Sequence record: OV754623
Strand: one strand, 5' to 3'
Length of the DNA stretch: 64,000 bases
Origin: Escherichia phage UGJNEcP1
Shown here: in pieces, positions 2,602-29,761 of the stretch
Numbering within the stretch: the first letter of the stretch is position 1
Layout: the number at the start of each line of letters is the position of its first letter
Notes under the pieces: generated by a model
Told to the model about the DNA's origin: nothing
What the model saw: only the letters and a program-made list of their open reading frames with translations
Database searches by the model: none
Translations under genes and position numbers: made by a program

Positions 2602-3000
2602 TTACACTCTATTGCTTGATGCTAATTGAAGTTTGATTTGTTCGATATCATCAGGGTTATCTACGACCGAAAATCTAATCTCTACTATAACTGTATAGTC
2701 ATCATATACTGGCGTTACACTTACAGAAAGTTTGTCGATGCGCGGCTCATAGTTACGGACGGCTGCCTGGATATTACGCTCAATCGTATCGGCTGTAAGT
2801 GGTGTCATGTTCTCGAAAAGTTCATCAACCAAATCGCATCCAAATTCTGGGTCGAAGGGGCGTGAGCCTTTTCTAGTTGTCACTATACCAAGAAGACTAT
2901 TTTTAATAGAACGAAGTCCTACAGAACGAGCAACGTCCTTGTTCCAATCCATACGCATTTCTGGGTCGATATCTGAATAAAGTTTATTGATATTAGACAT
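2602..3000 (-). CDS. 25: baseplate wedge protein gp25
   Basis: 132 aa, same length as T4 gp25; synteny uvsY-25-26. Confidence 0.85.
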   Translation of the reverse strand: MSNINKLYSDIDPEMRMDWNKDVARSVGLRSIKNSLLGIVTTRKGSRPFDPEFGCDLVDELFENMTPLTADTIERNIQAAVRNYEPRIDKLSVSVTPVYDDYTVIVEIRFSVVDNPDDIEQIKLQLASSNRV

Positions 3001-3626
3001 TATAGTAACTCAAAGAATTCTTTGAGGCCTCGTATTGTGTGAACATGTGACGCCCCACATTTGGGACATTTAATAGGGGTTGCCAGATAAATTGATGGCG
3101 ATACCAAAAGATTTTTAATATTGATCATGTCATCTTCTGTTATAAGGCCGTAAAGGTCGTTTATTTCAGCTTCAGTTAAATCTTCAACAGGGATGGACTC
3201 TCCATTGACAAAAACGGCCTCAATACATGAAGCAATCATTAATGCGATATTTTTATCGTCAAATAATTTAGGTTGGCGGAACTTAATTTTAATACCACTA
3301 AACGAATACCAGGGATCGGCCTGTTCATCTAATTGAGTGTGCAATAAATTCATATAGACTTGAAATGAATGCCCACAGGAACAATTCCAGGTGTGTTCTT
3401 GATTCACTTCACCTAACGAATGTGCCCACAGATTTACCAACAATAGCTCGGCTTCTTGTTTAGTCAAGTTTTTAGCATTAGAGCAATTAGTGATAATATT
3501 GTTCACTGCTGATTCAATAGTACCGGTAGCCCGCGCACCTATGAGTCCTAAATATTCTTTTAAAGTAAAGGCTCTACAATTCACTTCTTTATCGCCTAAA
3601 CGTACGGTAAACGTATATTTGTACAT
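3000..3626 (-). CDS. 26: baseplate hub subunit gp26
   Basis: 208 aa as T4 gp26; divergent from gene 51 across a shared late-promoter region. Confidence 0.8.
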   Translation of the reverse strand: MYKYTFTVRLGDKEVNCRAFTLKEYLGLIGARATGTIESAVNNIITNCSNAKNLTKQEAELLLVNLWAHSLGEVNQEHTWNCSCGHSFQVYMNLLHTQLDEQADPWYSFSGIKIKFRQPKLFDDKNIALMIASCIEAVFVNGESIPVEDLTEAEINDLYGLITEDDMINIKNLLVSPSIYLATPIKCPKCGASHVHTIRGLKEFFELL

Positions 3627-3644
3627 GTTAACTCCTTTATTGTT

Positions 3645-3656
3645 TATTTATAAATA
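3645..3656. promoter_or_regulatory. bidirectional late promoter (overlapping TATAAATA on both strands) for genes 26 and 51
   Basis: Palindromic TTATTTATAAATAA between the divergent starts at 3626 and 3674. Confidence 0.55.
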
Positions 3657-3673
3657 ATAGAAAAGGAGTAATT

Positions 3674-4426
3674 ATGGCTAATATAATTCGTTGTAAATTA
3701 CCGGATGGTGTTCATCGTTTCAAGCCGTTCACCGTAGCGGATTATAGAGACTTTTTACTAGTTAGAAATGATATCGAACATCGTTCGCCACAAGAACAAA
3801 AAGAAATAATTGCCGATCTGATTGATGATTATTTTGGCGAGTACCCTAAAACATGGCAACCATTTATATTCCTGCAAGTTTTTGCAGGCTCTATAGGCAA
3901 AACAAAAGTTCCCGTTATTTTCACTTGCCCTAAATGCTCTAAAGAAAAAACTGCACCATTTGAGATATATCAAAAAGAACTAGTCGAACCTGAACTTGAT
4001 GTTGCTGGTATAAAAATACGTTTTTCTTTCCCTGAAAAGTTTTATGACAACAAGGCATTAATGATAAGTGAAAACATAAAAGAAATATATTATAATGATG
4101 AATGGTACCCGTGGAATGATTTGACTGAAGAGAACCAAATCCAAGTAATAGAAGCAATAGACATTGACTCGCTCGAGAAGGTTATTGCTTCTATGAACCC
4201 TATTAATTTGACCCTTAGATTAGGTTGTTGTGAACGTCATGTTAAAACATATACTGATATCTTAGAGGTTTTTAAATTGTTAGTTAACCCTGATGAGATT
4301 TTTACATTCTATCAGATAAACCATTCACTAGTAAAGAGTCAATACACGTTGGATTCTATTATGCAAATGATTCCTGTTGAACGTGGTATTGCTTTAACAT
4401 TAGTAGAAAAGGACCATAAAAAATGA
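3674..4426 (+). CDS. 51: baseplate hub assembly catalyst gp51
   Basis: 250 aa; AGGAG SD; TATAAATA 18 nt upstream; synteny. Confidence 0.8.
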
Positions 4427-5595
4427 CAGTATTCCAACGTCCAGGATATCCTAACTTAAGCGTTAAATTATACCAAGATTATTCGGCTTGGCAAGAAAAT
4501 AGATACGTTGAACTCGCAGCAACAATAACAACTTTAACCATGCGAGATTCGCTATATGGAAGAAATGAAGGGATTCTTCAATTTTATGACACTAAAAACA
4601 TCCACACTAAAATGGACGGTAGACAGATAGTTCAAATCTCTGTTTCAAATTCAAACACACCTCTCCAAGTTAGAACTCGAATTTATGGATGTAGACATTA
4701 TTCTGTGTCTGTGGACTCAAAAGGTGACAATATTATTGCAATTGAGCTTGGAACAATACATTCTATAGAGAACCTTAAATTTGGGCGACCATTCTTCCCA
4801 GACGCAGGAGAATCTATACGTGAAATGTTAGGTGTCATATATAAAGACCGTACATTAATTACTCCGCCAATAAACACTATTAATGCTTATGTTCCTGATA
4901 TTCCTTGGACAAGCACATTTGATGATTATTTGGCATATGTCAGAGAATTAGGACTTGCTACAGCGAGTGATAAGTTCGTATTCGTATGGCAAGATATTTT
5001 AGGCGTAAACATGATTGACTACGATACTCTTATTGGTCAGGAAGGCATTAAGATGATTGTAGGCGAGCCAAATACCGTAGGTCAGTATATTCAAGAGCTT
5101 GAGTATCCATTAGTATGGGATTTCACCTGGATGACTAAAGCTAACCAATTTACAAGAGACCCTATTAAAAACGCCACGATATTCGCCCATTCATTTTTAG
5201 ATACATCTATTCCGGTTATTGTTACAGGCGATGGTGATAATGCTATTGTTGTGTCAAGATCTGGTGGATATTCCGAAATGACCTATCGTAATGGATTTGA
5301 AGAAGCAAGTCGTCTTCAGACAATGGCTCAATATGACGGATATGCTAAATGCACTACTACAGGTAATTTTAACATAACGCCTGCTACTAAAATTATATTT
5401 GTTGACCAAAAGAACCAATTCAAATCCGAATTTTACGTAGATGAAGTTATTCATGAGTTATCAAATAACAACTCACAAACTCATCTGTACATGTTTACCA
5501 ACTCAATGGTGTTAGAACCTGTTAACCCAGTTAAGGTTAAAAATGAACTTAAATCTGATTCTACCTCTAAAGAAAATAATTCTACCACAGTCTAA
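4423..5595 (+). CDS. 27: baseplate hub subunit gp27
   Basis: 390 aa (T4 gp27 391 aa); synteny 51-27-28-29. Confidence 0.85.
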
Positions 5596-18447: not shown

Positions 18448-18780
18448 TCACTTATAAAGACACGGAATAGCTTTATAGTGGCATGTTACGAATTTCTGTT
18501 TAATTTCTTTAGGTTGTTTAAGTCCCAAAGCCACAAATGGATGTGGAACATTTCGAATTTGTCCAACCGGTAGTGGAGTCAAATCACCGACTTCAACAAA
18601 ACCTTCAGGAACATCAGGACCTACAGAATGAACTACGCATAGTTCAGGAACTTCACCTTGAACACGTTTACCAATCACAAGTCCTGATTCGGTAACTTCT
18701 TCATCACCTGCTTGAGCGGGTTCAGAAACCAGAATAACATATTCACCAACAGCACGAATTGGGAGTTGTACTTCAGACAT
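18448..18780 (-). CDS. 31: co-chaperonin gp31 (GroES analogue for capsid folding)
   Basis: 110 aa; near-identical to T4 gp31 as recalled; MotA-box middle promoter upstream. Confidence 0.9.
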
Positions 18781-18810
18781 CTTATTTCCTTGTTGTTTGA
18801 CGATAGATTA

Positions 18811-18836
18811 ATAATACCATACTATTCGTAAAGCAT
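18811..18836 (-). promoter_or_regulatory. MotA-dependent middle promoter for gene 31 (MotA box ATGCTTTA, 12 nt, TATTAT)
   Basis: TGCTT-containing MotA box about 12 nt upstream of a -10 hexamer. Confidence 0.5.
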
Positions 18837-18837
18837 A

Positions 18838-19146
18838 TTACATAAGAAGCAAACGTTCTACCGGAGTACCATCAACCGAAATTACTTTATCAAGGCGGAA
18901 AGAACGCCACTGGCCTAACTTGGTATCGAATGCTCGAACTGATTCACGAGGTTCATAACGAACTTCTGTTGCCGGATTGTTATTTTCGTATTTGACTTCA
19001 AGTTCATCACGGGAGGCAAACATCGTACGAACATCACCGTTAGCCTTTTCAAATACAACACAATGAACGCCTACAGACAGAATAGTTTTAATACGTTCAC
19101 GAAGAACCATAGTTTCTTGTTCAGTTAAAATCATATTATTCACCAC
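18838..19146 (-). CDS. hypothetical protein (31.1 position)
   Basis: ORF track; synteny. Confidence 0.5.
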   Translation of the reverse strand: MVNNMILTEQETMVLRERIKTILSVGVHCVVFEKANGDVRTMFASRDELEVKYENNNPATEVRYEPRESVRAFDTKLGQWRSFRLDKVISVDGTPVERLLLM

Positions 19147-19717
19147 AAAAGTTTCGGATTTGTTCCCAATTCAGAGAACGAAGATTATTACGAGAGTACT
19201 GAATTACTTCAATACCAGCTTGTTTAAGAATGTCTGCCCAATTTTCAGGAGATCGGTCATATAATTCTGCATATACAACCTTTTTAATACCTGACTGTGT
19301 AATAGCTTTAGTGCAATCAGGACATGGAGAAAGTGTCGTATACAACGTAGCACCTTCAATAGAATTACCTTTACGAGCTGCAAACAAAATTGCATTCAGT
19401 TCCGCATGGATTTCGTTATTGGCAGACCATGCACTATGAGCAGCCCGATGTTCTTTAGCCAAAACAAAATTATCGGCCCGTCCAAATGCTGTAGTGCCTT
19501 CTTTATGCCCAGCAACGATGACTGGGATTGGTTTATTCTTCAACCAACCATTTTCAGATGCATGTTCGCAACAGTTAACGCCACCTGCAGGTGAACCGTT
19601 ATACCCAGTAGAAATAATGCGCCCATCTTTTTCAATGACTGCGCCAACTTTCCATGAACAACATTTTGATTCTTGAGAAATCAGATATGCAATCTGAAGG
19701 TATGTGCTAGCTTTCAT
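19136..19717 (-). CDS. cd: dCMP deaminase
   Basis: 193 aa as T4 Cd; zinc motifs HAE (HAELNAI) and PCxxC (SPCPDCTKAI). Confidence 0.9.
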   Translation of the reverse strand: MKASTYLQIAYLISQESKCCSWKVGAVIEKDGRIISTGYNGSPAGGVNCCEHASENGWLKNKPIPVIVAGHKEGTTAFGRADNFVLAKEHRAAHSAWSANNEIHAELNAILFAARKGNSIEGATLYTTLSPCPDCTKAITQSGIKKVVYAELYDRSPENWADILKQAGIEVIQYSRNNLRSLNWEQIRNFCGE

Positions 19718-20709
19718 TATTGAACCTTATTAATATAAGTTAACAGCTCTTTAGTTTGTTCCCAACTGATGCACGCATCGGTAACGGAAACGCCATAGGA
19801 CATATTATCAGAAATTTTTTGATTTCCTTCATGTAGGAATGATTCTATCATAATTCCTTTGACCAAATCATTAGCTGCTAAATTTTTACCAATACCAATT
19901 TGATTGCTATAATGCCCATCAGCGTTTGCATGGCTACAGTCAACCATTACATAATGATTCAGACCTACTGCCCTTGCTTTGTTAGAAGCTTCTTGAATAT
20001 CAGAAGAATGATAGTTCGGGCCGTTGGTCCCGCCACGCAATACGATATGCGTATTCTGATTACCTTCAGCTTCAACAATGCCTACAGTACCATCGACGTC
20101 CATACCCATATACCGATGAGGCCAGGCGGCACTATACATCGCGTCTGTAGCTACTTTAATAGAACCATTGGTTGCGTTCTTGAAGCCTACGCACATCGGT
20201 AGACCTGAAGCAATTTCACGATGTGTCTGACTTTCAGTCGTACGGGCGCCAATAGCAACCCATGAGAAAATACCAGAAAGATACTTAATCGTGAATGGGT
20301 CTAATACTTCAGTTGCTAATGGAAGTCCCATACGTAGAAGTTTACGACACAATGTTCGTGCAACTATAAGACCGTGGTTCATATCAAAACTTCCGTCAAG
20401 ATATGGATCATTTACAAGACCTTTCCAACCTACGGTAGTTCGAGGCTTTTCAAAATAAACGCGCATCACTAACAGAACATTAGGAAGACGAGTTTGAAGT
20501 TCAGCCAGACGTTTGCCGTATTCAACAGCAGCAATAGGGTCATGAATTGAACAAGGACCTACAACAATAAGTTTGCGTGGGTCTTCACCGTTCATAATCG
20601 AATTAACTTGTTCGCGATGAGAAGCCACTTGTGATGCGTAAGCTTCCGACAAAGGAATAATCTCAGCTAGTTCTTTTGGAGAAATAAGTTTTCCGACGAC
20701 AGGTAACAT
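19717..20709 (-). CDS. 3-deoxy-D-arabino-heptulosonate-7-phosphate (DAHP) synthase, class I (AroG/AroF/AroH type)
   Basis: 330 aa; GPCSIHDP, MRVYFEKPRTTVGWKGL, AIGARTTESQTHRE; putative metal ligands Cys (GPCS), His (CSHAN), Glu (IESFLHEG), Asp (TDACI), matching E. coli AroG as recalled. Confidence 0.85.
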   Translation of the reverse strand: MLPVVGKLISPKELAEIIPLSEAYASQVASHREQVNSIMNGEDPRKLIVVGPCSIHDPIAAVEYGKRLAELQTRLPNVLLVMRVYFEKPRTTVGWKGLVNDPYLDGSFDMNHGLIVARTLCRKLLRMGLPLATEVLDPFTIKYLSGIFSWVAIGARTTESQTHREIASGLPMCVGFKNATNGSIKVATDAMYSAAWPHRYMGMDVDGTVGIVEAEGNQNTHIVLRGGTNGPNYHSSDIQEASNKARAVGLNHYVMVDCSHANADGHYSNQIGIGKNLAANDLVKGIMIESFLHEGNQKISDNMSYGVSVTDACISWEQTKELLTYINKVQ

Positions 20710-20829
20710 AACAATCCTTAGGAGATATAAACAGATTCTGATTCAACAATACCTTTAACCGGATTAGACAGGCTAAGTTGGTAGTGCTTAGATTTATGAC
20801 CATTCTCGATAGTAATGAGATAGCTCTCA

Positions 20830-21066
20830 TTATAGTGTTCCATATACTCGAGTTGCTTCAACAAGACCATCACTGCCTAATTTAAGATTAGTAATTTGGT
20901 CACCATCTTTAGGATTAACGATTATGAGAAAAGAACGTGGAGATTCTTGAATAACTCGTAATGTTGCATCTTGGAAACGTTCAGACACTTTATTGATGAG
21001 TGCTTGAGCAAATTCTTTTACTTTAATCTGAAATTCGTGTACTGTAATTGGGTTTTCACTTAGCAT
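20830..21066 (-). CDS. hypothetical protein
   Basis: ORF track; early-type promoter and GAGGAAA SD upstream. Confidence 0.45.
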   Translation of the reverse strand: MLSENPITVHEFQIKVKEFAQALINKVSERFQDATLRVIQESPRSFLIIVNPKDGDQITNLKLGSDGLVEATRVYGTL

Positions 21067-21094
21067 TTCTATTTCCTCATTTGTTGGTAGAGTT

Positions 21095-21124
21095 ATAGTA
21101 TCACAACTCCACCATGTTGTAAAC
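21095..21124 (-). promoter_or_regulatory. T4 early-type promoter (GTTTAC-N18-TACTAT)
   Basis: Upstream of the ORF starting at 21066. Confidence 0.5.
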
Positions 21125-21126
21125 CA

Positions 21127-21402
21127 TTAAATTGCTTTGCATTCAATTTTTTGTGTACCGAAATTGATATCACACTGGATAACTAAATCACCATCAAGAT
21201 CAAATACCACTATGACGTGCGCAGACCCAGGGAGAAGAGTAATAGCAATAGAATCTACTTGGTCTGGGAGCAAAGCATTGAGTACATGAGTTAGTTGAGC
21301 ATGAACTCTGAGTTCGGCTGCATTATCAAGCACTTCAAACATATTATTAGCAATAATCTGACTGAAGACTACCTTTACAATTTCAGAATAAGTTGGGAAC
21401 AT
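21127..21402 (-). CDS. hypothetical protein
   Basis: ORF track. Confidence 0.45.
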   Translation of the reverse strand: MFPTYSEIVKVVFSQIIANNMFEVLDNAAELRVHAQLTHVLNALLPDQVDSIAITLLPGSAHVIVVFDLDGDLVIQCDINFGTQKIECKAI

Positions 21403-21409
21403 AATTACC

Positions 21410-21634
21410 TCAGTGTACAGTATTTACTTTAACTCGAACAACAAATCGCTCGGTCGGTTCACCTACAGGAACAAACTCTACATGATATTCGCCTTTGTAA
21501 CGAGTATTCAGATCATTACGAATTCCTGCGAGTTTGTTTATTAATGTAGGACTCATATTAAGTCCCACTAGTTCACGAAGCATTTTGTATGCTTCATCTT
21601 CGATTTCATGATGTTTATCGTACATAGTTTTCAT
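21410..21634 (-). CDS. hypothetical protein
   Basis: ORF track. Confidence 0.45.
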   Translation of the reverse strand: MKTMYDKHHEIEDEAYKMLRELVGLNMSPTLINKLAGIRNDLNTRYKGEYHVEFVPVGEPTERFVVRVKVNTVH

Positions 21635-21805
21635 TTAACCATTCAATTGCCTGGTCGACGTTATCAAATATACCGCCGTCCAAACGTTCTTCATGCTCAT
21701 AGTCCAGCACATCAATACCGAACTGTCCATTTACTAAAGGCCAGGCTACAAACAAATATTCTTTATGCTGTTCGATGGCCTCAATCACTTCATATAATCG
21801 TTTCA

Positions 21806-21806
<1 letters not shown>
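21615..21806 (-). CDS. hypothetical protein
   Basis: ORF track; directly upstream of pseT. Confidence 0.4.
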
Positions 21807-22892
<1,086 letters not shown>

Positions 22893-22893
<1 letters not shown>

Positions 22894-23192
22894 TATTTTA
22901 TTCCTAAGAAAATTTCAAGAATACGAATGTTATGCTCGCGCCGGTCTTTATTAATTTCAGCAACGTTTTTATTAATTGACGTACTTCTAACGTTTGAAGA
23001 AATAAATTTAATCATATGACTTTTGAGTTGTTGCAAATCCAACCCTTTTTCTTTAGCAGCTTTACGAAGAGCTTTACCTGCTTCATCTAGTGCCTTTGCT
23101 GCATCTTTGTCATAATTGCCAAGTGACATTCCACGACAGATATCAATATACTCATCGGACCGTTTGATGTAATTCTCTAGTAATGTTTTCAT
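22893..23192 (-). CDS. hypothetical protein
   Basis: ORF track; early-type promoter at 23221..23250. Confidence 0.5.
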
Positions 23193-26275: not shown

Positions 26276-27451
26276 TTAGAAATATTTTTTGTATGAATTG
26301 ATTACATTTTGGTCTACATCATTATCAATTTGTGCGACAAGATAAGAACTGATTTCAACTTCCTGAGGAGCTGCTTGAACTAAATCGGAGTTCAGATATT
26401 CACGAATCCAAGGATATGGATGCTTGGTCGGAGCATCAGTGATTGGGCATGGCAAACCACACTGTTTCATACGAGACACAGTCAAGTAATCAACAAAAGC
26501 ACACATACTCTGCGTATTGATACCTGGACATGTACCGTCTTTAAAGAGGTGTGCAGCCCATTCCTTCTCTTGTCTATTTACTTCCATAAAAATGTCAACT
26601 GCTTCTTGTTCACATTCTTTAGCAATTTGAACCCACTCATCACCATCAGTACCAGATTGAAGTTGACGGATAATATACTGAGTACCCTTGAGGTGGAGTT
26701 GTTCGTCACGAGCAATGAACTTCATAATCTTTGCATTACCTTCCATAATTTCCATATTTTTATGGAAGTTGAAAGTACATGCAAATGATACGTAAAAACG
26801 AATAGCTTCTAAGGCGTTGATAACATGCAAACAGAGATAAAGAGACTTCATTAAATCACGCTTGGCGTTAAACATTATTTCTTCGTACATCTCAATATCA
26901 TTCTGCTGGCATGAGCCTATTGAACACTCGTAAACTTCCTTAGCATTTTCCCAATGACGAGTCTTGACTAGAACATCATCGTAATATTTACCTATTGATT
27001 CAGCTCGTTTCATGATTGCTTCGTCTAATACAATTTCATCAAATACCTTAGATGGGTCAGTATAAAGATTTCGCATGATATGAGTATATGAACGACTGTG
27101 AATAGTTTCACTGAATGTCCATGTTGCAACCCACGTATCTAATGAAGGGTCAGAAATCAGTGCCATAAGTACCGCAGATGGGGCCCTGCCTTGGATAGAA
27201 TCTAATAATGATTGATACTTAAGATTGTTTGTAAAGATGTCCTGTTGGAACTGAGGAAGCTTATTGAACTGCGCAGAGTCCAACATCAAGTTTACCTCTT
27301 CGGGGCGCCAGAAAAATGACAATTGCTTTTCGGTCAAATCTTCAAAAACTTTATGGCGTTGAATATCATAACGCGCAATACCAAGACCAGAACCAAAGAA
27401 CATCGGCTCATTCAAAACATCGACTTGTTGTGTGTTAAAAACTGTACTCAT
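26276..27451 (-). CDS. nrdB: ribonucleotide reductase class Ia beta subunit (no intron)
   Basis: 391-aa continuous ORF; di-iron/tyrosyl radical protein; resembles T4 NrdB. Confidence 0.95.
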   Translation of the reverse strand: MSTVFNTQQVDVLNEPMFFGSGLGIARYDIQRHKVFEDLTEKQLSFFWRPEEVNLMLDSAQFNKLPQFQQDIFTNNLKYQSLLDSIQGRAPSAVLMALISDPSLDTWVATWTFSETIHSRSYTHIMRNLYTDPSKVFDEIVLDEAIMKRAESIGKYYDDVLVKTRHWENAKEVYECSIGSCQQNDIEMYEEIMFNAKRDLMKSLYLCLHVINALEAIRFYVSFACTFNFHKNMEIMEGNAKIMKFIARDEQLHLKGTQYIIRQLQSGTDGDEWVQIAKECEQEAVDIFMEVNRQEKEWAAHLFKDGTCPGINTQSMCAFVDYLTVSRMKQCGLPCPITDAPTKHPYPWIREYLNSDLVQAAPQEVEISSYLVAQIDNDVDQNVINSYKKYF

Positions 27452-27505: not shown

Positions 27506-29761
27506 TTAAAGCTTACAAGCAGAACAATCTTCAGCTTTAGGTGTTTCTAATTCATAGTCATCTGTACCCGACCCATCACGAGTGTTATGATAGTAGAGGT
27601 TTTTTCCGCCAAAGTACCAGAAGTAAAGCAGATCGTCAAGCATTACTGACATTGGCACTTTACCTTTCTCAAATATCGCAGGGTCATAGTAGGTATTAGC
27701 AGAAGCAGATTGGCACACCCATTTCAACATGATAGCAACTTGAGTCAAATAAGGTTTATTACCTTTCTTAGCAAGTTTCCACGCGTAGTCGTAAAGACTC
27801 ATGTTATGTTCTATATTAGGAACAACCTGACGGAAGTTGCCTTCTTTAGATTCTTTAATACTTACTGGACCACGTGGTGGCTCAATCCCGTTTGTAGAGT
27901 TCGATACTTGACTGCTTGACTCACAAGGCATGAGTGCAGACAACGTTGAGTTACGAATTCCATGTTCTTTGAGTTCAGCTCGAAGTTCTTCCCAGTCACA
28001 GACGTAGTTCGGGGCTGCGATTTGGTCAATCTTTTTATTGTACCAGTCGATAGGTAATTCGCCTCTAGACCATTTAGTGTCTGAATAATACTCGCAAGGT
28101 CCTTTTTCTTTGGCGAGTTTGATTGAAGCTTTGATAAGGCCATATTGCAATCTCTCAAACAATTCATGGGTCAAATCGTTAGCGTCTTCATATGAAGCAA
28201 AGTTAGAAGCTAACCATGCAGCATAGTTCGTAACACCCACGCCAAGGTTTCGACGCTTTTTAGCTTTTAAAGCTTCTGGAACCGGATAATCTTGATAGTC
28301 TAACAGGTTATCAAGTGCACGTACTTGTACTTCAGCAAGTTCATTAATTTTATCTTGGTCTTGCCAATCAAATTTATCTAATACAAAAGCAGATAATGTG
28401 CATAAACCAATTTCAGCATCAGGACCATTCACATCATTAGTTGGAATAGCGATTTCACAACATAAGTTACTCTGTCGAATTGGAGCTTTTTCGCGAATAA
28501 ATGGAGTGTAGTTATTCGTGTTATCAACAAACTGTGGATAAATTCGAGCAGTGCCAGAACGTTCAGTCATGAACAATTCAAAGAGTTCTAGTGCTTTGAT
28601 TCTTTTCTTTCTGATTGTTGGGTCTTTTTCAGCTTTCTCATAAAGCTCACGGAATTTATCTTGATCTTCAAAGAACGAGTAGTATAGTTCGCCTGACATT
28701 TCGTGAGGGCTAAATAAAGTAATATAATCATTTTTACCAAGGCGTTCCATCATAAGGTCATTAATCTGAATTCCGTAGTCCATATGTCGAATACGGTTTT
28801 CATCCACGCCTTTGTTATTTTTCAGAACTAATAGGTTCTCTACTTCTAAGTGCCACATCGGATAATACGCTGTAGCAGCACCACCACGAATACCGCCTTG
28901 AGAACAAGATTTTACTGCAGTTTGGAAATGTTTCCAGAATGGAATAACACCAGTATGTCGAACTTCACCCATACCAATCTTAGAACCTTCTGCACGAAGC
29001 ATACCAACGTTGATACCTATACCAGCTCGTTTAGAAATATATTCAATAATTGATGCTGAAGTTTTGTTAATAGATTTTAATGAATCACCGGCTTCAATAA
29101 CTACACAACTAGAGAACTGGCGAGTCGGAGTACGAGCACCTGCCATAATTGGAGTAGGCAATGAAACTTGATGAGTAGAAACAGCATCATAAAAACGAAT
29201 AATATGTTTCAAACGGTCATGAGTTTCGTCTTGATGTAAGGCCATACCAATAGCCATGATAGCAAACTGGGGAGTTTCATAAATCTTCCCAGTTGTTTTA
29301 TCTTTAACTAGATATTTTTCTTTAAGCTGCATAGCACCAGCATAAGTCAGGTCGAAATCTCGCTCGTGTTTAATCTGTGAATCAAGATAAATGATTTCTT
29401 CTGCAGAATATCTAGACAACAGCTCAGGGTCGTATTTGCCTTCATTAACACAGTAAGAAATATGGTCGATAAAAGCAGGAGGTTCAAACTGTCCATATAC
29501 ATCTTTACGAAGTGCAAACATTAATCCTTTAGCGGCAACATATTGATAATCGGGTTCTTCGACAGAAATCGAGTTAGCTGCAACTTTAATACAAATCTTC
29601 TGGATATCTTTGGTGCTCATCCCATCGACAAGATGGGTCTTAATTTCTTCGTACAATTCATATGGGTCGATTTGTGTTCCTTCACATTGCCAAGTTAAGA
29701 CTTGAATAATTTTCTGTGCATCAAAATTTTGGGATACACCACTGCTCTTAGTTACTTGCAT
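27506..29761 (-). CDS. nrdA: ribonucleotide reductase class Ia alpha subunit
   Basis: 751 aa; near-identical to T4 NrdA across long stretches as recalled. Confidence 0.95.
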   Translation of the reverse strand: MQVTKSSGVSQNFDAQKIIQVLTWQCEGTQIDPYELYEEIKTHLVDGMSTKDIQKICIKVAANSISVEEPDYQYVAAKGLMFALRKDVYGQFEPPAFIDHISYCVNEGKYDPELLSRYSAEEIIYLDSQIKHERDFDLTYAGAMQLKEKYLVKDKTTGKIYETPQFAIMAIGMALHQDETHDRLKHIIRFYDAVSTHQVSLPTPIMAGARTPTRQFSSCVVIEAGDSLKSINKTSASIIEYISKRAGIGINVGMLRAEGSKIGMGEVRHTGVIPFWKHFQTAVKSCSQGGIRGGAATAYYPMWHLEVENLLVLKNNKGVDENRIRHMDYGIQINDLMMERLGKNDYITLFSPHEMSGELYYSFFEDQDKFRELYEKAEKDPTIRKKRIKALELFELFMTERSGTARIYPQFVDNTNNYTPFIREKAPIRQSNLCCEIAIPTNDVNGPDAEIGLCTLSAFVLDKFDWQDQDKINELAEVQVRALDNLLDYQDYPVPEALKAKKRRNLGVGVTNYAAWLASNFASYEDANDLTHELFERLQYGLIKASIKLAKEKGPCEYYSDTKWSRGELPIDWYNKKIDQIAAPNYVCDWEELRAELKEHGIRNSTLSALMPCESSSQVSNSTNGIEPPRGPVSIKESKEGNFRQVVPNIEHNMSLYDYAWKLAKKGNKPYLTQVAIMLKWVCQSASANTYYDPAIFEKGKVPMSVMLDDLLYFWYFGGKNLYYHNTRDGSGTDDYELETPKAEDCSACKL

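Follow-up and report, generated by a model that had tools for sequence, protein, structure and literature searches.

A predicted DAHP synthase of T4-like phages with clade-wide replacements at the feedback-inhibition site

A DAHP synthase gene next to cd

We analyzed a 64,000-nucleotide stretch of Escherichia phage UGJNEcP1 (sequence record OV754623; hereafter the window), in which a minus-strand open reading frame (ORF) of 330 amino acids with an ATG start lies between the T4-type genes cd.2 and cd. By sequence and predicted structure this ORF is a type I-alpha DAHP synthase (3-deoxy-7-phosphoheptulonate synthase) with a complete catalytic residue set. As the valve of the shikimate pathway, this enzyme is kept by cells under tight feedback control. 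The phage enzymes share six fixed replacements, and published inhibitor-site or feedback-resistance positions account for five of them. An earlier note on this DNA, made from the letters alone, had proposed a class I DAHP synthase on the minus strand between cd and pseT (21806-22705); the ORF, its coordinates, the profile scores and all three motifs quoted in that note agree. In the translation these motifs are GPCSIHDP (residues 51-58), MRVYFEKPRTTVGWKGL (residues 82-98) and AIGARTTESQTHRE (residues 152-165). Feature coordinates are collected in Table 1.

Profile searches placed the ORF consistently. The match to Pfam PF00793 (DAHP_synth_1) covers residues 36-323 and is well past chance (E=5.2e-75, 252 bits, cutoff 25.5), and the NCBIfam aroFGH equivalog TIGR00034 matches residues 6-327 with 427.7 bits (cutoff 173.2). 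Among subfamily models, the ORF passes the cutoff of the AroF type (NF009395, 455 bits vs 343) and falls below those of AroH (386 vs 463) and AroG (363 vs 568). It matches PHROG 5045, 'phospho-2-dehydro-3-deoxyheptonate aldolase', from end to end (E=3e-182). In a sequence comparison with the Protein Data Bank (PDB), E. coli AroF (6AGM, E=5e-105) comes first, ahead of the Neisseria meningitidis enzyme (DAH7PS) and E. coli AroG, and identity to the three E. coli paralogues is 51% for AroF, 47% for AroG and 43% for AroH. The gene had also been described as the only host-type biosynthetic ORF in the window, a claim that must be narrowed: cd, nrdB (~26276-27451), nrdA (~27506-29761) and td (from ~30105) are present too, and the DAHP synthase is the only biosynthetic ORF that we noticed outside nucleotide metabolism.

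Catalytic residues and predicted fold

We aligned the phage enzymes with E. coli AroG, AroF and AroH and about 95 further bacterial homologues, and tabulated 12 catalytic or substrate residues together with 18 residues around the AroG phenylalanine site. The metal ligands Cys61, His268, Glu302 and Asp326 of AroG correspond to C53, H260, E289 and D311 of the phage protein; no phage orthologue and none of the full-length bacterial homologues that we examined departs from them, so that the four ligands claimed earlier survive a careful alignment with no loss of catalytic residues. The eight residues for PEP (phosphoenolpyruvate) and for E4P (erythrose 4-phosphate), namely R92, K97, P98-R99-T100, R165, K186 and R234 in AroG numbering, are likewise kept, giving 12 of 12 metal, PEP and E4P residues in every phage orthologue, the KPRT motif included; across the whole alignment these 12 do not vary. 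This motif separates DAHP synthases from 3-deoxy-D-manno-octulosonate 8-phosphate (KDO8P) synthases. From these residues we infer that the phage enzyme is catalytically competent, converting PEP and E4P to DAHP and phosphate.

The predicted structure is that of the family. An AlphaFold2 model built on 49 sequences (mean pLDDT, the per-residue confidence, 90.2; predicted TM-score 0.90) superposes on AroG and the N. meningitidis enzyme (1KFL, 8E0U, 4HSO) with a Foldseek TM-score of 0.95 and a root-mean-square deviation of 1.5 Å. Type I-alpha enzymes consist of a (beta/alpha)8 barrel with an N-terminal extension and an internal beta-hairpin (PMC4735112). The model contains the barrel, hairpin strands at residues 198-203 and 209-214, and an N-terminal extension that is present but shortened, with residues 1-10 as coil.

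Six replacements fixed in the phage clade

To look for clade-specific change without reference to a residue list, we scanned all 350 AroG positions in 98 bacterial and 18 non-redundant phage sequences, asking for positions at which at least 90% of the bacteria share one residue and at least 17 of the 18 phage sequences share another, uncommon among the bacteria. These criteria single out just six positions: Pro150 (91 of 98 bacteria) is Ile in the phage clade, Gln151 (98/98) is Lys, Asp155 (95/98) is Gly, Ser180 (97/98) is Pro, Phe209 (97/98) is Tyr and Thr223 is Ala. Each replacement is found in 17-18 of the 18 phage sequences, which overall are only 57% identical, while the neighboring pocket positions 212, 214 and 215 vary within the clade. 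Three of the six fall in one short segment of the UGJNEcP1 enzyme, DPFTIKYLSG, where I141, K142 and G146 stand for P150, Q151 and D155.

Most of these positions have a known part in feedback control. In AroG, P150L, S180F and F209A/S are feedback-resistant, Gln151 and Ser180 (Gln152 and Ser181 of AroF) touch the main chain of bound phenylalanine or tyrosine, and an Asp155 salt bridge stabilizes the inhibitor site (review of DAHP synthase feedback engineering, PMC9529685). By our own hypergeometric estimate, the chance that five of six changes would fall among 11 listed positions out of 350 is of the order of 1e-7, and the sixth changed position, 223, is two residues away from V221, where resistance is likewise known. 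The earlier note had suggested from the N-terminus that the enzyme may be deregulated; the replacement of P150, Q151, D155, S180 and F209 supports this idea more strongly than the argument on which it was based. Such clade-wide remodeling of the feedback site appears to be undescribed.

The N-terminus is indeed shorter than in the cellular enzymes, by 8 residues relative to AroG (not the 10-15 given earlier), 9 relative to AroF and 7 relative to AroH, and deletions in internal loops, together with a shorter C-terminus, make up what is left of the 20-residue difference in length. Counted before the column of AroG P19, there are 10 residues in the window protein, 8-12 across the phage clade, 19 in AroF and 16-53 in bacterial homologues. 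In AroG, Asp6 and Asp7 of the neighboring subunit contact the inhibitor, and AroF N8K is tyrosine-resistant. The N-terminal extension and the beta-hairpin together form the type I-alpha allosteric machinery and the phenylalanine site (PMC4735112).

Several GenBank phage records carry the label 'aroF, Tyr-sensitive', which is probably wrong. Profile score and closest relative do place the protein with AroF, but the inhibitor-site residues and the full N-terminal extension of a Tyr-sensitive AroF are missing: Gln151/152, Ser180/181, Pro150, Asp155 and Phe209 are replaced by K, P, I, G and Y. The phage enzymes do have Gly at AroG position 211 and Pro at 147, as in AroF, and their ancestor was therefore probably AroF-like.

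Gene order, junctions and expression signals

In T4 the order of genes is pseT-cd.5-cd.4-cd.3-cd.2-cd.1-cd-31.2-31.1-31, and in the window it is pseT-...-cd.3-cd.2-DAHP synthase-cd-31.1-31. The earlier placement of the gene at a site that in T4 holds nothing but small cd.x ORFs can be refined: it occupies the cd.2/cd interval, the slot of T4 cd.1. In RB69, the type Mosigvirus, cd.2 directly adjoins cd and the DAHP synthase gene is absent. The stop/start overlap with cd noted earlier is a TAATG in which the DAHP synthase stop and the cd start share one base, and the two genes are probably translated in tandem through this coupling.

A three-way DNA alignment of the window, RB69 and T4 shows that the spacer and the ORF together form a 1113-bp segment missing from RB69. 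Near-identical 15-mers bound this segment, and the first codons of cd are repeated at its left junction, an arrangement that fits gain or loss by short-homology recombination; the junction repeat looks like the scar of such a cassette event. The left-edge repeat can also form a perfect 8-bp hairpin, UAAUGAGA-GCUA-UCUCAUUA (20813-20833), and it opens a 55-aa ORF (20663-20830) that overlaps the DAHP synthase start. A regulatory RNA in the 120-bp spacer was considered and rejected: overall the spacer has no significant RNA structure (folding z=-0.26), and Rfam returned only a chance-level match elsewhere and none there.

The spacer likewise contains no consensus promoter match, and a promoter of the gene's own was rejected, the nearest minus-strand site being upstream of cd.2. 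This site, a sigma-70/T4-early-type TTTACA-17-TACTAT with a TG, aligns with the annotated T4 early promoter Pe133295 between cd.3 and cd.2. The scanned region yielded 10 promoter-like sites where 11.5 were expected. A scan of 18700-22900, an interval that includes everything from the promoter-like site through cd, turned up no terminator-like site on the minus strand. Early co-transcription of cd.2, the DAHP synthase gene and cd from a promoter upstream of cd.2 is thus likely, judging from these signals.

Table 1. Features of the DAHP synthase locus in the window (all coordinates refer to the 64,000-nucleotide stretch).
Feature	Position	Strand	Evidence
DAHP synthase ORF, type I-alpha (3-deoxy-7-phosphoheptulonate synthase)	19717..20709	-	profiles, PDB match, AlphaFold2 model
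Metal-ligand codons	C53 20551..20553; H260 19930-19932; E289 19843-19845; D311 19777-19779	-	alignments, residue table
Remodeled allosteric segment D137-G146	20272..20301	-	residue table, scan
Other clade-fixed codons	P171 (S180) 20197-20199; Y200 (F209) 20110-20112; A214 (T223) 20068-20070	-	scan
cd, dCMP deaminase, 193 aa, downstream neighbor	19136..19717	-	Pfam PF00383 E=1.5e-26; annotation of identical record
cd.2 homologue, 78 aa, DUF7320, upstream neighbor	20830..21066	-	Pfam PF24005 E=1.5e-35; aligns with RB69 and T4 cd.2
Shine-Dalgarno AAGGA, 5 nt before DAHP synthase ATG	20715..20719	-	sequence
120-bp spacer between cd.2 and DAHP synthase start	20710..20829	-	three-way DNA alignment
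Left junction repeat ATAATGAGAGCTATC, 13/15 copy of cd start region	20819..20833	-	alignment, sequence
Right junction repeat ATAATGAAAGCTAGC, 1113 bp from left copy; holds DAHP synthase stop (19717-19719) and cd ATG (19715-19717)	19706..19720	-	
Sigma-70/T4-early-type promoter-like site	21095..21123	-	promoter scan, conserved alignment block at columns ~325-370

Several further observations concern the same region. Antisense to the DAHP synthase gene there is a 10/12 sigma-70-like site, TTTACC-17-TATAAT with a TG (19885-19913, plus strand), with a weak hairpin about 120 nt downstream (20035-20052, plus strand); the site is at chance density and is probably noise. The cd gene of RB69 (NC_004928, 13743-14252) is annotated with 169 aa, not 193. 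Compared with the window and T4, it shows two indels near its 3' end (alignment columns ~2236-2275), first +1 and next +2, which could be a real frameshift or old sequencing errors. Downstream of cd, the gp31.1 homologue (18838-19146, minus strand) matches Pfam WYL_2, an Sm-like SH3 beta-barrel (E=3.7e-9), and the label 'tail fibers protein' that this ORF has in several GenBank records looks like a propagated misannotation. PADLOC gave no match for the DAHP synthase or its neighbors, and with no literature support either, a role in defense or anti-defense was rejected.

Distribution among T4-like phages

The gene and its annotation are already known. Escherichia phage UGJNEcP2 (OV877511.1; a Mosigvirus of the Straboviridae, Tevenvirinae) matches the region at 100% identity and has the ORF annotated as 'aroF'. 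A tblastn search of 50,697 phage records (INPHARED) found homologues in 212, most of them annotated as DAHP synthase: 139 at 95% identity or more (Mosigviruses of Escherichia and Shigella), 47 at 60-80% (phages of Enterobacter, Edwardsiella, Klebsiella, Serratia and Erwinia) and 26 below 60%. PHROG 5045 is categorized as moron, auxiliary metabolic gene (AMG) and host takeover, DAHP synthase has been listed as a phage AMG of unknown function (bioRxiv 10.1101/2020.01.19.911818), and the phiC120 genome paper mentions a DAHP synthase domain. The novelty that the earlier note implied for a phage-encoded DAHP synthase is correspondingly lower. Two faecal contigs labeled 'Bacteriophage sp.' (H89 and H90), which are unverified, unannotated and of a different DAHP synthase subgroup, were left out of the comparisons. 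A misleading name was also encountered in the NCBI protein cluster P0001, which is 98% identical and called '3-deoxy-7-phosphoheptulonate synthase [Escherichia coli]', although its longest contig (170,875 bp) is a phage genome under its host's name.

Besides Mosigvirus, the same slot is occupied in Kanagawavirus Entb_45, Marfavirus PWKp18, Winklervirus X20, Bragavirus phiP4-3 and an uncultured T4-like contig. The ORF between the DAHP synthase gene and cd in X20 and phiP4-3 is a homologue of T4 cd.1 (E=2e-10 and 1e-7), and the fullest arrangement is therefore cd.2-DAHP synthase-cd.1-cd, from which T4 lacks the DAHP synthase gene, the window lacks cd.1 and RB69 lacks both. At the level of Mosigvirus, an uninterrupted cd.2-cd junction is found in 11 records, compared with 139 that have the gene. 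The gene is thus a cellular-type enzyme in a complete Mosigvirus genome that is variably present among relatives, as an AMG is expected to be.

Origin and other viral DAHP synthases

Neighbor-joining trees recover the phage sequences as a phage-only clade (100/100 bootstraps, and 94/100 with Kimura distances). AroF is the closest E. coli paralogue. The best bacterial sequences are ~52-55% identical to the phage enzyme and none exceeds about 55%. Between genera, the ratio of nonsynonymous to synonymous substitution rates (dN/dS) is 0.11-0.22, with dS saturated, and the GC content at third codon positions (GC3) of the gene is 0.293, against a phage mean of 0.288 +/- 0.05. Taken together, the sequence comparisons indicate that the gene is an old T4-like resident under purifying selection, and not a recent host capture.

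Among virus-labeled contigs of IMG/VR, the signature IKGPYA formed by the six replacements occurs together with a short N-terminus in all 10 T4-like contigs, and in none of about 65 others, which have canonical or near-canonical residues (mostly PQDSFT). Two more distant homologues also depart from the canonical site. A 262-kb viral contig (L028; IMGVR_UViG_3300028829_003504) carries a PHROG-5045 DAHP synthase at 2956-4005, flanked by a topoisomerase IB-like gene and by a thymidylate kinase gene that overlaps it. The protein is 49% identical to the window protein and partly remodeled, with P, N, H, P, Y and S at the six positions (Q151N, D155H, S180P, F209Y, T223S). In Aeromonas phage HJ05, which has a 79-kb genome and is not T4-like, a 'hypothetical' homologue at 3899-5062 is 38% identical, keeps all catalytic residues and has A, H, P, P and V at 150, 151, 155, 180 and 209. 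The HJ05 enzyme suggests that phage DAHP synthases may have lost the canonical feedback site more generally; bootstrap support for placing L028 and HJ05 with the T4-like clade is only 49-68%.

A separate group of IMG/VR contigs, many of them labeled GVMAG (L058, L064, L068, L076, L078, L081, L084-L086, L089, L091, L092 and L095), contains very AT-rich ORFs of 630-680 aa. The only one scanned, L064, has a canonical DAHP synthase fused to a prephenate dehydratase domain (PDT, E=8e-16) and a region with a weak match to chorismate mutase, a DAHP synthase-PheA fusion. The contigs come from giant-virus bins and may represent either a genuine phenylalanine module of viruses or contamination with cellular DNA.

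Proposed role and alternatives

We propose, with moderate confidence, that the phage DAHP synthase is expressed early, escapes feedback inhibition and drives carbon into the shikimate pathway once the host has been shut off. Early transcription would start at the conserved promoter upstream of cd.2. Its allosteric site having been dismantled or remodeled, the enzyme is therefore most likely feedback-insensitive, the six fixed changes and the shortened N-terminus together making it insensitive to phenylalanine, tyrosine and tryptophan. The window also encodes the host shut-off functions alc and denA (endonuclease II), and the host aro genes should therefore not be inducible after infection: with host transcription shut off, AroF, AroG and AroH would be neither induced nor released from feedback. 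The inflow of carbon to the shikimate pathway is controlled by DAHP synthase mainly via feedback inhibition (PMC9529685). The phage enzyme would keep this flux-controlling entry open, and surviving host enzymes would turn DAHP into chorismate and on into aromatic amino acids, folate and quinones. Activity, inhibitor insensitivity, early timing and physiological benefit are here all inferred from sequence. The ORFs of the window contain 4.4% Phe and 4.1% Tyr, and E. coli proteins about 3.9% and 2.8%; this comparison is weak evidence for an extra aromatic demand.

Other points also weigh against this proposal. The promoter is a consensus match at chance density, backed only by its positional homology to T4. 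The replaced residues are themselves invariant in the clade, which fits a site with retained function as well as it fits a disabled one, and in the AlphaFold2 model the N-terminal helices are largely retained, as is the beta6a/6b hairpin. The gene is dispensable, being missing in T4 and in RB69-type Mosigviruses, and any benefit must therefore be conditional. The literature that we searched gives no assay, complementation, transcript or knockout for any phage DAHP synthase.

The same invariance could mean that the pocket has been re-specified and answers to another small molecule (chorismate, prephenate or a nucleotide-pool metabolite) or to a protein partner that binds the surface formed by I141, K142, G146, P171, Y200 and A214. 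The near-invariance of the six replacements beside drifting positions 212, 214 and 215 speaks for this, as do the kept hairpin and N-terminal helices, the new charge added by Q151K, and the S180P that the L028 lineage and HJ05 also have, with other residues at 151 and 155. We nevertheless rate it rather unlikely, since no result points to a candidate ligand, the conserved residues are part of the tight-dimer interface, where they could be fixed by structural constraint alone (PMC4735112), and a bulky aliphatic at 150 with loss of the Ser180 hydroxyl is the pattern of feedback-resistant mutants. An active, unregulated enzyme might also serve another end, either draining E4P and PEP so as to keep pentose-phosphate carbon in ribose-5-phosphate, available for making nucleotides, or supplying chorismate for p-aminobenzoate and folate to meet the one-carbon demand of td, frd and dCMP hydroxymethylase. 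Its gene does lie among genes of nucleotide metabolism, next to cd and not far from nrdAB, td and frd, and is translationally coupled to cd in Mosigvirus, Kanagawavirus and Marfavirus; the L028 homologue, overlapping a thymidylate kinase gene, is a second phage DAHP synthase beside nucleotide metabolism; and chorismate is a folate precursor (PMC9529685). Adjacency in the T4-like early region is a weak guide, however, as pseT, small unknown ORFs and gene 31 share the block and one or two ORFs separate the gene from cd in Winklervirus and Bragavirus, and a role of this kind likewise seems to us rather unlikely. A bolder combination of these ideas, itself unlikely, is that the pocket has been converted to a non-aromatic effector site or locked as a constitutive E4P/PEP sink, coupling shikimate entry to phage nucleotide synthesis: the six substitutions stay invariant through more than 40% divergence, which would speak for conversion of the pocket, and the gene's coupling to dCMP deaminase together with the viral homologue that overlaps thymidylate kinase would speak for the nucleotide link. 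If true, this would be a link between aromatic and nucleotide metabolism that is not described in cells.

The remaining readings keep the enzyme closer to its cellular relatives or take it further from them. It is improbable that it is an ordinary Tyr-sensitive isozyme of AroF type adding regulated capacity: AroF is the closest solved structure and E. coli paralogue, the NF009395 cutoff is passed, Gly and Pro stand at 211 and 147, and N. meningitidis DAH7PS variants at an equivalent position (S213G) have been crystallized with and without tyrosine (PDB entry titles), but the main-chain contacts Q151 and S180 are Lys and Pro in every phage sequence, P150, D155 and F209 are replaced as well, and the N-terminal segment is truncated. 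Use of another aldose phosphate (arabinose-5-phosphate, giving KDO8P), or provision of a sugar for DNA hypermodification such as the arabinosyl-hydroxymethylcytosine (ara-hmC) of Mosigvirus, is very improbable. PF00793 also covers KDO8P synthases, and RB69 carries ara-hmC with its donor pathway unresolved (PMC6024577); the aroFGH equivalog score of 428 bits and the KPRT motif for the E4P phosphate led us to reject KDO8P synthase or any other PF00793 member. We likewise rejected the ara-hmC link, as RB69, where ara-hmC was demonstrated, lacks the gene, the gene also occurs outside Mosigvirus, and the module proposed for arabinose maps away from this locus, between gene 43 and uvsX. That the gene is a recent capture or a decaying, functionless passenger is effectively refuted. 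It is accessory, as its absence from T4 and RB69-type Mosigviruses would lead one to expect of a passenger, but it holds the same place in five genera, its dN/dS is about 0.15 and no catalytic residue has been lost, and 43-51% identity to AroH, AroG and AroF, the ceiling of about 55% among bacterial sequences and phage-like GC3 led us to reject recent host capture.

Widespread T4-like phages of E. coli, Klebsiella, Enterobacter, Serratia, Erwinia, Edwardsiella and Proteus thus carry a DAHP synthase with an untouched catalytic site. Should the enzyme prove insensitive as proposed, a virus would have evolved the same solution that metabolic engineers use, an overexpressed feedback-resistant DAHP synthase, and would offer a ready natural one for the production of aromatic compounds. 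It would also provide a tractable AMG system in E. coli, where natural phages with and without the gene exist (JS09-type and RB69-type), and such a system would allow one to ask which limiting metabolite a T-even phage needs after host shutdown.

Comparison with known systems

E. coli AroF (6AGM/6AGL), AroG (1KFL, 1QR7) and AroH belong to the same family as the phage enzyme and share its metal ligands, PEP and E4P residues and predicted fold with the beta6a/6b hairpin. The phage enzyme differs from them in having 7-9 fewer N-terminal residues, three short loop indels, a shorter C-terminus and the six site replacements. Its changes fall at the same positions as those of engineered feedback-resistant enzymes (AroG P150L, S180F, F209A/S and D146N; Corynebacterium glutamicum AroF P155I/L), and the likeness extends to their kind: position 150 becomes a bulky aliphatic, the Ser180 hydroxyl is lost and 209 is altered. 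Unlike those mutants, the phage set is natural, multi-site, fixed in a clade and combined with an N-terminal truncation.

Among viral proteins, the window protein and the L028 homologue are both full members of PHROG 5045. The canonical DAHP synthases on IMG/VR contigs, mostly from bins labeled as giant-virus metagenome-assembled genomes, are virus-associated as far as these labels go and have intact catalytic residues like the phage enzyme. In contrast to it, they are 40-52% identical, have canonical P150, Q151, D155, S180, F209 and T223 and a full N-terminus, and fall outside the T4-like clade.

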